Origin: Promethearchaeota archaeon | GTDB taxonomy: Archaea > Asgardarchaeota > Lokiarchaeia > Sigyniarchaeales > SOKP01 | Reading direction: 5' to 3' | Length of the DNA: 19,715 nt | Assembly (NCBI GenBank): GCA_030599585.1 | Contig: JAUVNS010000032.1 | Coordinates: 1 to 19,715 of the forward strand | Shown here: positions 3,157-18,144 of the stretch, piece by piece | Layout: each line of letters opens with the position of its first letter | Numbering within the stretch: position 1 is the first letter of the stretch | Program-made: the position numbers and the translations under genes | The notes under the pieces: model-generated | The model's input: the letters and a program-made list of their open reading frames with translations, nothing else | What the model was told of the DNA's origin: nothing | Databases searched by the model: none

Positions 3157-3177
3157 TTTTTTTTTATTTTTTCCTTA
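3157..3177 (+). terminator. Oligo-T archaeal-type terminator
   Basis: Two T-tracts immediately after the TAA of 2266-3156. Confidence 0.5.
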
Positions 3178-3182
3178 TTGCT

Positions 3183-3760
3183 GTCATTTTTCGAATGACT
3201 TCACAATTTAAAATTGAATTTCCGTCGCTAAGAGACGACTTCGTAAAGTTCGTGCTTTCTTTGTCTATAAGCGGAGCCTTACACAAACAAATGGAAAAAT
3301 CTGCTCTTATTAAATTTTTTAGCGAGAGCTTTGGAGGGTTTGGATACCTAATTCGCTTCGTCAAGTCGTTAGAAACATAAAAACACGATTAATGTGTAAC
3401 TTTCACTTATCGTTCGGTCCGTACTAATTTAGTACGCATCGGTAAAAATGGCTTAAAAAGCCAAGTTCTACGATTCGGTAGAAAAATTTCTTGTTTTAAT
3501 AATTATCAATTTTTTTCGATAAGAAAAGGAAAGGGAGACTCCTACCACCAAGACCTAATAAGAAGGTCAGAAACAAAATAGGGTTAGGAGGGCGAAATGA
3601 GCGTGCAGAGCACGCTACCAAAAGACAAAAATCCAGGGCGGCGTGCAGGAGTCATGGTTTGAGTTTTCCCTATTTTACTTTAATTTTTTTTGTGTAGCTT
3701 TTTTTCTTTCAAAACGAAAATTACATGCGAAAAAATGCTAAGATTTTATCTTTCTTTACA
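3183..3760. ncRNA. Candidate large structured non-coding RNA or structured mobile-element end
   Basis: At least 10 inverted repeats, e.g. CGTACTA/TAGTACG 3420-3436, TGGCTT/AAGCCA 3449-3463, TTCTAC/GTAGAA 3466-3483, AGCGTGC/GCACGCT 3600-3616. Long-range pairs ACGACTT/AAGTCGT (3235/3363), GACTCCT/AGGAGTC (3537/3647) and AAAATAGGG/CCCTATTTT (3575/3668). GC is above the flanks and there is no convincing long ORF. Confidence 0.55.
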
Positions 3761-3780
3761 TTATCTATTTTTTTTATACA

Positions 3781-3794
3781 TATATAAATCTTTC
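3781..3794 (-). promoter_or_regulatory. Archaeal BRE + TATA promoter pointing into the structured region
   Basis: Minus strand reads GAAAGA-TTTATATA, a near-consensus BRE/TATA. Predicted start near 3755-3760; no ORF downstream. The TATATAAA could also serve the + strand ORF at 3843. Confidence 0.55.
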
Positions 3795-3842
3795 CACATA
3801 GCCGGATTAGTAGCACACAATAATCTCGTTTTTAAAGTTTAA

Positions 3843-4139
3843 ATGTTAAACCAAAATTGTTTTAATTCGTTAGCCAGCGCACCCCTCCTATCGGGAACTA
3901 CCGAAATTTCCTTTCTCACCCAATCTGAAATTCAGCTTACTCGTTTTATGAACCTTCGTCTGTTAAAAGAGTTAGGGACTAACCGTTTAAAAAATGAAAA
4001 CATAGAGATCAAGATAAGCTACCCAAAAACTTTCGACACGGGACTCTTTGGCGTGGAATATCCCGAACTCTACGCGAAATATACGTATGAAATAATTTCA
4101 ATGGATGAGGAGAATATAAATCTCTCATATTTCCTCTAA
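3843..4139 (+). pseudogene. Hypothetical protein, probably a truncated N-terminus (possibly of a transposase)
   Basis: 98-aa ATG ORF, CpG-richer than host genes, abutting a 5'-truncated LRR gene. The transposase link is inference only; no catalytic motif lies in this piece. Confidence 0.4.
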
Positions 4140-4266: not shown

Positions 4267-5214
4267 ATGTTGAAATCACCTAAAAAGCTAGATTTATATG
4301 AAAATCGATTATCGACTCTTCCTACATCAATTCGGAACCTTAAATCGCTCCAAACTCTATCTTTAGCGTGTAATAAAATAATAACTCTCCCCAAATCGAT
4401 AGCCCACCTCCACTCACTGATTAGTTTAGATTTACATAGGAATCATTTATCTACTCTTCCAGAATCGATAGATGAACTCTCTTCTCTTAAAAAATTAAAT
4501 TTAAGCGAGAATGAGTTAAAAACTCTCCCAGAATCAATAGAGAATCTTAAATCACTAAAGACATTAAACTTACATGAAAATCAATTTTCGATACTCCCAA
4601 AATCTCTTTGGAATTTGAAATCACTTACTTGCCTCGATTTGGGGGGAAATAATATATCCATTCTCCCGGATTCAATAAATCACTTAAAATCACTTGAGAT
4701 TTTAAGGTTAGGAGATAATCAGTTGTCCACCCTTCCTGATTCAATGGGTCAACTCTCCTCGTTAAATGAATTAAATTTGTCTAATAATAAATTTAGGATC
4801 CTTCCAGAGTCGATAGGTAATCTCTCTTCACTTGAAGTATTAAATGTAGGTCAAAATACATTAGAGAACATTCTTGATTCCATAGGTAATTTATCATCTT
4901 TAAAAGAATTATGGTTATCATATAATCGGATCAAGTTTTTACCAAAATCGATAGAAAAATTAAAAGCTCTTATATCCCTCAATGTTGGTCATAATCTTTT
5001 ATCGACACTCCCTGATTCAATAGGTAACCTAAAATCACTTGAAAAGTTATGGATAAACAATAATATGTTATCCACCATTCCTGATTCAATAGGAAAGCTC
5101 TCTATGCTAAGAAAAATAAACTTATCTGAAAATCAATTTAAGGATTTCCCACAAGTAATTAAAAACTTAGAAAAAAAAGGTGTTAAAATTGGTAAATTAT
5201 CTAGGTTTTTATAA
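4267..5214 (+). CDS. Leucine-rich repeat protein (about 13 x 23-aa repeats plus C-cap), likely 5'-truncated
   Basis: Consensus NxLxxLPESIGNLKSLxxLxL, C-cap IKNLEKKGVKI. The repeat phase continues upstream of the ATG (NKITKLPESIG from about 4234), so the ATG is mid-repeat; the first repeat has an L>P substitution. Confidence 0.92.
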   Translation: MLKSPKKLDLYENRLSTLPTSIRNLKSLQTLSLACNKIITLPKSIAHLHSLISLDLHRNHLSTLPESIDELSSLKKLNLSENELKTLPESIENLKSLKTLNLHENQFSILPKSLWNLKSLTCLDLGGNNISILPDSINHLKSLEILRLGDNQLSTLPDSMGQLSSLNELNLSNNKFRILPESIGNLSSLEVLNVGQNTLENILDSIGNLSSLKELWLSYNRIKFLPKSIEKLKALISLNVGHNLLSTLPDSIGNLKSLEKLWINNNMLSTIPDSIGKLSMLRKINLSENQFKDFPQVIKNLEKKGVKIGKLSRFL

Positions 5215-12321: not shown

Positions 12322-12930
12322 ATGGTTGAATTTAAAAGTAAAGTTAATCAAAGTTATATGAATAGCAGAATCACTAGTATTTACTCTAAATTAGATGAAA
12401 TTTTTAAGAAGTATACAGATGACAAAAGAGAATGTGTCATCACTTCAGTAAGAGAGGGAAGACATGGAATTGGACCTGGATCTTTACATTATATCGGTCG
12501 TGCTATAGATGTTCGAACGCGGGATATGAGTAAACGAAATATCCAAAATGTATTAATCGCTTTAAGATCTTCTCTGGGAAAAGCTTTTCAAGTAGTAGAC
12601 GAAACATTAAAACCTGAGGGACCACATATTCATATTGAATATGATCCTAAAGATGAAGCATGGACATCTTGGGTGCCACAATTGGAATTAGTGCAGTTAT
12701 TTGAGAGCAAAAAAAATAGAGAGTATCCAGTTGAACTTGAAGGCGCTTGGAACACTTTCACTAAAATCCCGCAATTTCGGGGAGTATATAAATCTCACTT
12801 TGCACCGCCTTTTATGTTTTGGGCTTTAATTGGATTAAACGATCAACAATTTCAAAATTTAGATCGTGAAAGAAAAGCTAATAACTTCTATAAGAACAAT
12901 TACTATAACAGAAATGATAATAATTGTTAG
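12322..12930 (+). CDS. Peptidase M15-like (Hedgehog/DD-peptidase fold) Zn hydrolase with a truncated C-terminal domain
   Basis: VITSVREGRH...SLHYIGRAIDVR...PHIHIEYD gives the H-x6-D and HxH Zn-ligand motifs. The last ~13 codons are the antisense of another gene's start. Confidence 0.88.
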   Translation: MVEFKSKVNQSYMNSRITSIYSKLDEIFKKYTDDKRECVITSVREGRHGIGPGSLHYIGRAIDVRTRDMSKRNIQNVLIALRSSLGKAFQVVDETLKPEGPHIHIEYDPKDEAWTSWVPQLELVQLFESKKNREYPVELEGAWNTFTKIPQFRGVYKSHFAPPFMFWALIGLNDQQFQNLDRERKANNFYKNNYYNRNDNNC

Positions 12931-17509: not shown

Positions 17510-18112
17510 ATATATAAAGTAAGACTTTCGGTATGGGATTTTGCCGAGGAAGAGAGATTTAAGGTCTTTTTTCCAAGTTTCGTACAAGGTACTCAAGGCG
17601 CGTTATTTTTATACGATGTTGCAATTGGCTTTTCAATTGATCAAATTGACGAGTGGTTAAGACTAATTAAAGAGGGAGTTGGAGAAGGAGTAAAAATACC
17701 CATTTTGGTGGTAGGGATTGTAGCTGATGAGAAGAGGAAACGAAAAGTTTCAGAGTTAGAGGGCGTAAAAATCGCCAAGTCACGGAATCTAAGTGGGTAT
17801 ATAGATTGCAATCTTAAAACGGAGAAGAATACAAAAGAAGTTTTCGAAGATTTAGTAAGACTGATGCTAGCGTGTCACGGCTCAGGTTACGGCTTAGGTC
17901 CTCAATCCATTCGAAGCAAGACTTTTTTGGGAGCACCAACAGTTGGATTCCACTATGCTGTGTGTTATAATAAAAATGTTATTATTCTTGATGGAGATCG
18001 CCATGTCATAGATGTACTAAACAAAAAATTCACTCATGATTTAGAATTCACAAAACTATTCACAATTTTAAATTTTAAGCGAAAAAAATTAATAAAAAAA
18101 GAATTAAAGTAG
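17510..18112 (+). pseudogene. Rab-like small GTPase fragment (no P-loop) read through into an unrelated tail
   Basis: The frame is open from 17510: VRLSVWDFAEEERFKVFFPSFVQGTQGALFLYDV...IDEWL...IPILVVG...RKVSELEG...EVFEDLVRLML. TAA at 17507; G1 and G2 are absent; GTPase similarity ends near 17870. Confidence 0.85.
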
Positions 18113-18144
18113 GGAAAATTAAGTTAAAAATCTTCAATCCTGAA

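Follow-up and report, generated by a model that had tools for sequence, protein, structure and literature searches.

A conserved small structured RNA family of Lokiarchaeia with a U-rich, Sm-site-like junction motif

Introduction

The eukaryotic Sm consensus, PuAU4-6GPu, is flanked by stem-loops, and the SmAP rings of archaea bind U-rich RNA (PMC3710371). The Sm site of the U7 snRNA is AAUUUGUCUAG (PMC7026596, PMC12360213). Whether archaeal Sm proteins act as RNP scaffolds or as RNA chaperones is an open question, and as of 2013 no species with four to six Sm genes was known (PMC3710371). An RNA that is conserved in archaea near the eukaryotes and keeps its U-rich site fixed allows this question to be tested directly.

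Here we analyze a window of 19,715 nt, contig C39 (JAUVNS010000032.1) of the 4.85-Mb genome of a Promethearchaeota archaeon (GCA_030599585.1). An initial annotation had described positions 3183-3794 as a hairpin-dense, non-coding block with its own promoter. The block is a composite of a small RNA gene of about 125 bases, a broken protein gene, and a DNA palindrome of mobile elements. Its right third holds a real, undescribed RNA family of Lokiarchaeia, whose function we infer. Almost every genome of the largest Lokiarchaeia family has this RNA, and the sister family has it too, yet no described RNA family fits it: it is absent from Rfam 15, and we found no description of it in the literature searched, most of it outside subscription journals. 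The core RNA is a member of no named family; its broad kind is a small structured RNA with a putative Sm-type site.

Composition of the block

BLAST against the genome itself divides the block into three pieces. In other copies these lie hundreds to thousands of bases apart, with other genes between them, so the block is not one continuous element. Every stem listed in the initial annotation is present, as are the BRE-TATA at 3794-3781 and the pyrimidine tract. The expectation that the block would fold better than shuffled sequences was borne out in two segments, 3528-3658 (z of -5.17 on the minus strand, 0/200 shuffles, and -2.72 on the plus strand) and 3400-3500 (about -3.4 and -3.1 on the two strands). 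It failed in the two others, 3177-3380 (-0.7 and -0.3) and 3660-3800 (-0.5 and -1.0), which fold like shuffles. The two left-hand pieces are:

3177..3380, plus strand: 3' remnant, 67 codons and stop, of a gene for 120-179 aa, function not known (tblastn, 58-78% identity; third-position bias)
3414..3442, no strand: imperfect 11-7-11 palindrome with conserved non-pairing positions (5 copies in the genome)

The frame at 3177-3380 has six protein homologs, 58-78% identical, with substitutions mostly in third positions (e.g., 23 vs 14 and 10), and the gene is intact in integrated-element copies on C9 (120 aa) and C10 (179 aa). Since this is the remnant of a protein gene and folds like shuffles, its stems are due to chance. 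Codon-pattern conservation among homologs, the sign of a decayed coding sequence, is found in the left third of the block. Hence, the term non-coding does not suit the open frame at 3177-3380. A second, plus-strand RNA of about 320 nt had also been proposed; it finds no support, as the stretch in question is the truncated protein gene followed by a DNA-type palindrome. If any part of the block is a structured element end, as was suggested, it is the palindrome at 3414-3442.

In this palindrome, a variable core of 7 bp separates two arms of 11 bp. Scanning the whole genome gave 5 copies, all of them 3' of an RNA copy and in one orientation, with a spacing to the RNA's U-rich motif that is mostly 140-250 nt and larger where cargo has been inserted. 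At the syntenic chromosomal locus described below, no copy was found. Over 3414-3463, the palindrome is joined by a conserved A-rich flank. At one locus (L271), two direct palindrome copies (2947, 3552) flank the gene of a 124-aa zinc-ribbon membrane protein, like a recombination cassette. The palindrome is probably a recombinase or repressor site of integrated elements. It resembles dif/pdif and att core sites of tyrosine recombinases in its two imperfect inverted arms of 11 bp with a variable 7-bp core, and in the direct copies flanking a single gene in one locus; this likeness is one of layout, no recombinase was linked to the palindrome, and an operator or a short RNA hairpin would also be possible.

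The RNA copy in the window shares about 190 nt of upstream sequence with the copies on C32, C10, C9, C35, and C23, and the copy on C32 lies less than 20 kb from a tyrosine recombinase and a ParB-like gene. Over 107 bp the window contig overlaps with C30, where parts of the same integrated backbone are found. From the shared upstream sequence and the backbone pieces on C30, the window copy is probably cargo of an integrated element.

Several other observations concern these elements. Related integrated regions, with several diverged copies in this genome (C32:198000-213232, C23, C51, C12, C24, C30), encode a tyrosine recombinase, a ParB-like protein, a 742-aa protein of no known function, and a wHTH protein. 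Their backbone also contains sibling folded elements of 125-150 nt (C32:201473-201613 on the minus strand, C12 at about 3270-3414, C51 at about 4823-4958; L287, L288), which have the closing helix and NCY-U-tail of the core RNA around a long-hairpin interior without the U-rich motif. Two or more other genomes of the genus have homologs of these siblings, and further ends of this kind, around other interiors, are seen at L209, L243, and L245:201-285. In the window, positions 18064-18118 (plus strand) are identical, 55/55, to the leader just upstream of the C32 RNA, with no RNA following; they overlap the 3' end of the ORF 17705-18112 and may be a recombination scar. The window also encodes a leucine-rich-repeat protein (4267-5214, plus strand) and has a weak match, below the cut-off (E 0.0015), to a Hedgehog N-terminal (M15-type) peptidase (12322-12930, plus strand).

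Architecture of the core RNA

The elements of the RNA are as follows:

3537..3653, minus strand: core small RNA, about 117 nt (z -5.17; compensatory changes in P1; model score 126.5 bits)
3653-3638 (5' arm) and 3550-3537 (3' arm), minus strand: closing helix P1 (compensatory changes in every pair)
3617..3637, minus strand: U-rich junction motif CCUGGAUUUUUGUCUUUUGGU, with two U-tracts and an Sm-site-like AU5G (near-invariant)
3600..3616, minus strand: hairpin P3, directly 3' of the motif (changes on both sides in all 6 pairs)
3569..3599, minus strand: pyrimidine-rich single-stranded junction with a GAUUU box and a C-rich anti-SD-like run (member sequences)
3552..3568, minus strand: hairpin P2, 5 bp with a 7-nt U-rich loop (changes on both sides in 5/5 pairs)
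3520..3536, minus strand: NCC and U-rich tail, probable terminator (sequence; in the family profile, C at +2/+3, then U at +4 to +7)
3668..3677, minus strand: 5' leader segment with potential pairing to 3575-3583 across P1 (10-bp duplex, -11.9 kcal/mol)

P1 measures 12-16 bp and joins the RNA ends. It encloses, from 5' to 3', the U-rich motif, P3, the pyrimidine-rich strand, and P2, while the NCC and the U-run lie outside. P2 is absent from some genera and its stem sequence is wholly swapped between genera; the pyrimidine-rich junction carries an extra hairpin in the sister family. The leader pairing is compensatory in the copy on C20, and it is strong in only 32/189 loci, so this pseudoknot or alternative helix is optional.

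The U-rich core UUUUGUCUUUU is present in 73/76 members, and the motif has 0-2 changes in most of the divergent members found by the model. Its general form is AU4-5G-UC-U4-5GG, with about 19 invariant bases. The host family reads G-A-U5-G-U-C-U and the sister family U-A-U4-G-U (full form AUUUUGUCUUUUUGGAUG), with a 1-nt indel between the two. The search method partly favours motif-bearing copies, which partly inflates this invariance; the RNA being near-universal, almost every genome keeps at least one motif-bearing copy. The motif lies between P1 and P3, and the folding model buries part of it in a weak, invariant 4-bp hairpin, whose pairs never vary and which is thus unsupported by covariation.

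An invariant, putatively single-stranded motif and a CCCUCCU-like run, which many members have, could each be the seed of a base-pairing regulatory sRNA with one conserved target, the C-rich run resembling an anti-SD sequence. The weak hairpin, which sequesters the GUC core of the motif in both families with its arms swapped, would suit such a role. We consider this reading unlikely, because neither the motif nor the C-rich run has a complement in 16S, 23S, SRP, or RNase P RNA above shuffled controls, there is no perfect complement in the genome outside the RNA copies, and the C-rich run is not conserved across genera.

Covariation among homologs is strong in the stems of the core RNA. When 68 sequences were aligned with MAFFT, without fitting to the structure, 18/24 pairs change on both sides. 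This alignment gives a covariation score of 0.262, vs 0.126 for shuffled data (0/500), and slid-partner controls reach at most 0.058. With 67 divergent members aligned to the model, all pairs (24/24) change on both sides, 92% of cells pair, and the score is 0.750 vs 0.211, in an alignment that leans towards the structure and whose counts are inflated by kinship. Stem sequences are wholly replaced between genera and the U-rich motif stays nearly fixed. Together with the family-wide conservation, the TATA-like boxes oriented with the RNA, the lack of an Rfam match, and SRP and RNase P genes that lie elsewhere, this covariation upholds the suggestion of an undescribed Asgard non-coding RNA on the minus strand, for 3537-3653 and its leader.

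Strand and promoters

The RNA is probably read from the minus strand. This strand folds better in 60/67 members; in a second comparison it was the better one in 20/29, with a mean z of -4.2 vs -3.2 on the plus strand. G-U pairs exceed A-C pairs in helix columns (78:30; 103:20). Strand-symmetric wobble counts are weak to null: with a composition control they gave 49 vs 30, but 68 vs 48 in shuffles, and a noisier test gave 159 vs 149. U-rich runs adjoin the closing helix on both strands. In some loci, convergent genes reach to within about 50 nt of the RNA's 3' end, which leaves little room for a promoter on the opposite strand.

Two promoter-like elements lie upstream in the window:

3741..3757, minus strand: promoter-like box resembling the GATAAAAATT box of many family members (upstream box statistics)
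3781..3794, minus strand: BRE-TATA (sequence; homology with integrated-element copies extends to 3843)

The GATAAAAATT box is found upstream on the RNA strand in 70/189 loci and on the other strand in 13; for TATA-like boxes, the numbers are 123/189 and 39. The idea that the minus-strand RNA has its own promoter is therefore sustained by TATA-like boxes oriented with the RNA. Of the two elements, the box at 3757-3741 is the more widely conserved; transcription from it would begin near 3715, as against the start near 3757 suggested in the initial annotation. Read as its reverse complement, the motif (3618-3632, plus strand) resembles the promoter box at 3741-3757 (minus strand), AAGA[C/T]AAAAAT, which may be chance in AT-rich DNA.

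Genomic neighbourhood

The 441 nearest ORFs of the RNA loci fall into 192 clusters and occur in both orientations, and no Pfam family recurs beyond 3/129 representatives among the neighbours. Such heterogeneous neighbours, in both orientations, argue for a stand-alone gene and not a leader. One locus is syntenic: in 57 sampled loci, the RNA has a divergent membrane-protein gene on one side and a Tes-like radical SAM gene (437.7 bits, just below the 450 cut-off) on the other. One or two copies of the RNA are vertically inherited beside this gene in the host family.

At this main chromosomal locus, the Tes-like gene is downstream on the same strand, as expected of a cis-acting leader such as a riboswitch or an attenuator peptide, and some copies have short ORFs running through the motif on either strand, as would be seen in a microprotein gene. 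Both possibilities together carry only a slight probability, the smallest among those we considered. Unrelated and often convergent genes are often inserted between the RNA and the Tes-like gene, and downstream genes are heterogeneous and in either orientation. The frame from start to motif shifts by 1-2 nt between copies, the 1-nt indel separates the motifs of the two families, and there is almost no synonymous change in the motif. A riboswitch or leader was rejected as the RNA is not consistently 5' of same-strand genes of related function, and a peptide on either strand, including an SD-led ORF of 21 codons, as neither frame nor start is conserved.

Could the element act as DNA, as a folded single strand, a recombination or replication signal, or a transposon or MITE end, without a functional transcript? 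It is multi-copy, many copies sit in integrated elements near a tyrosine recombinase and a ParB-like gene, both strands fold better than shuffles, and the palindrome trails the RNA. We find this quite improbable given the 57 syntenic loci between housekeeping-type genes, the promoter boxes oriented with the RNA strand, and a terminal helix that varies freely around a fixed interior, which is the reverse of a MITE. Moreover, no transposase, TnpB, or IS110 neighbour recurs among the top families, and the adjacent ORF 3843-4139 has no transposase match. A transposon left end formed with this ORF was rejected for the same lack of a match, the only similarity being of 20 aa to one other locus. The omega RNA of IS200/IS605, the bridge RNA of IS110, and MITEs were set aside because no linked transposase or TnpB recurs and the ends vary while the interior is fixed. 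An origin-recognition box, the core of which is GGAAAC, was dismissed since this core is absent.

Distribution and copy number

There are 9 copies of the core RNA in this genome, and the covariance model finds the RNA in 119/126 genomes of the host family, at 1-18 copies each. With a broadened model, 10 matches were obtained in the sister family; we discarded two of them (G042, G046), which overlap ORFs and do not have the motif, leaving clear members in 8/14 genomes. Metagenome contigs gave 8 further members. Searches of 5 genomes from two further families of the order, and of 7 genomes from another order, did not find the core RNA. Other Asgard classes yielded four weak matches (E 7e-5 to 4e-3), known by score alone. 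Homologs are almost all in records labelled Promethearchaeota, i.e., Lokiarchaeia; the matches in records labelled Hermod-, Hod-, Thor-, and Odinarchaeota or Patescibacteria resemble ordinary family members, and we do not trust these labels.

Two complete, single-contig genomes carry the RNA, G044 (4.4 Mb, two 23S genes; locus C1:1198517-1198664) and G055 (6.0 Mb, three 23S genes; locus C1:3151860-3151998), which we take to be, probably, Promethearchaeum syntrophicum MK-D1 and Ca. Lokiarchaeum ossiferum. Two carriers being probably cultured Lokiarchaeia, the expression, ends, and protein partners of the RNA can be tested in existing cultures.

A contig of IMG/VR (IMGVR_UViG_3300029288_000001, 224,826 bp) contains a partial match of 51 bits (L150:28-149) with the motif, P3, and the C-rich run; the closing helix is not evident in this copy. 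Its neighbours are an HNH endonuclease and phage-type genes of no known function, and the contig is possibly a Lokiarchaeia virus. In the genome G134, two diverged copies stand in tandem with a distance of about 290 nt, an arrangement that recurs at more than one locus (C14:149076-149505 and C14:3362-3794; L246, L247).

This range of 1-18 copies, the tandem pairs of G134, the copies on integrated elements, and the partial match on the 225-kb viral-database contig would fit a decoy or partner RNA of another specific protein, by titration in the manner of CsrB or 6S or as an RNA antitoxin acting in trans. The 19 bases would then be the protein site and the copy number the dose, and the invariance does extend beyond the U-tracts. 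We regard this as possible, if doubtful: each molecule has a single motif instead of repeats, no neighbour protein such as a toxin recurs, and none of the proteins considered is a candidate.

Known RNA families

No Rfam 15 covariance model matches 3537-3653 at the gathering score, and relaxed E-values bring chance matches only. Nine homologous loci have no Rfam 15 match at the RNA beyond one at chance level. The absence of an Rfam match fits the undescribed RNA put forward in the initial annotation, which had also seen no SRP, RNase P, or tRNA signatures. The SRP RNA (RF01857) and RNase P RNA (RF00373) were rejected, since both genes are elsewhere in the genome, on C22 and C7. ARAGORN reports no tRNA or tmRNA on the window contig, the P2 loop has no T-loop consensus, and the only tRNA-like feature of the core RNA is its NCC end.

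Y RNAs and vault RNAs resemble the core RNA in length (100-150 nt), in paired ends with a bulge in many members, in large pyrimidine-rich loops, in the U-tail, and in the presence of several copies per genome. The Ro60 site in the closing helix of Y RNAs is conserved. In the core RNA, the conserved bulged helix that binds Ro60 is absent and all P1 pairs change across members. TROVE/Ro60 (PF05731) was not found in this genome, which has a completeness of 100.

Retron msr-msd and DRT RNAs share with the core RNA a long closing helix, short hairpins, and a possible U-rich template and pseudoknot; the core RNA lacks an adjacent or co-occurring reverse transcriptase. A short, permuted U-rich stretch enclosed by a closing helix, together with an optional pseudoknot, thus recalls the RNAs that serve as templates for reverse transcriptases or other polymerases (retron-, DRT-, or telomerase-like). 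This is very improbable here, as RVT_1 occurs in only 25/126 genomes of the host family vs 119/126 for the RNA, no reverse transcriptase is among the recurring neighbours, and the genome has no tandem arrays of the predicted repeat. A 382-aa reverse transcriptase of retron-type appearance is encoded at C15:45278-45901 (L259), unlinked to the RNA.

A putative site for an Sm/Lsm ring

Since reverse transcriptases, Ro60, SRP, RNase P, rRNA pairing, peptides, and transposon ends do not fit, a protein-binding site acting in trans remains. We tentatively favour, at a little under an even chance, a stand-alone RNA whose stems would present the U-rich stretch to an Sm/Lsm ring. The data show its conserved structure, its distribution and copy number, how the promoter-like boxes are oriented, and the lack of a linked protein gene; its transcription, strand, Sm binding, and RNP function are what we infer. 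The core RNA would be transcribed independently from the minus strand. P1 would join its ends and, with two or three freely varying hairpins, form a multi-branch scaffold holding one near-invariant U-rich stretch at the junction, which may be the docking site of an oligomer of host Sm/Lsm (SmAP) proteins. The RNA would act in trans as a small RNP, with the stems providing stability and spacing, the ring seated on the U-tracts, and the remaining C/U-rich strand free for partners. Extra copies would travel on integrated elements, allowing these to add to the host RNP or to titrate it.

The host encodes candidate proteins for such a ring, with four LSM genes in this genome, of which one is most like archaeal Sm proteins and then LSm6/SmF. 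Most genomes of the order encode 3-4, and a few encode 5-6 Sm/Lsm genes. Sm genes are present in all genomes of the class, including those without the RNA, so their presence does not discriminate. The consensus PuAU4-6GPu is met only partly, because U and not a purine follows the G, and because the sister family also lacks the leading purine. In addition, the roughly 19 invariant bases are more than a ring binding oligo-U would require, and could instead be a site for a specific protein, serve as a template, or pair with a partner. The partial consensus, the 19 fixed bases, and the universal Sm genes keep us just short of calling the Sm-ring reading probable.

Comparison with Sm-associated RNAs

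Archaeal sRNAs bound by SmAP/Lsm and sibling sRNAs dependent on Hfq are, like the core RNA as we read it, stand-alone and multi-copy, with their own promoter, a U-tail, and U-rich single strands. The core RNA differs from them in its helix joining the ends and in a far deeper structural conservation, across two families and with full turnover of the stems; no seed-target pair was found for it.

With the Sm-class snRNAs, including U7, it shares the small size, a short U-rich stretch between stem-loops, and Sm-fold proteins in the host. The run UUUGUCU is common to its motif and the U7 site, and a match of 7 bases can be chance. It differs in that the motif is not near the 3' end but in a junction closed by a long helix, neither a guide arm at the 5' end nor a target was found, there is no Rfam match, and PuAU4-6GPu is matched in part. 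A bolder and rather improbable version of the Sm-ring reading would be an Asgard small RNP like the eukaryotic snRNP, in which 3-4 Sm paralogs assemble a (hetero)ring on an internal U7-like Sm site, the particle guides or scaffolds RNA processing, and extra copies on viruses and mobile elements serve to exploit the particle or to block it. If true, the RNA would be an archaeal counterpart of the Sm-class snRNAs, and would decide whether archaeal Sm rings are RNP scaffolds or Hfq-like chaperones.
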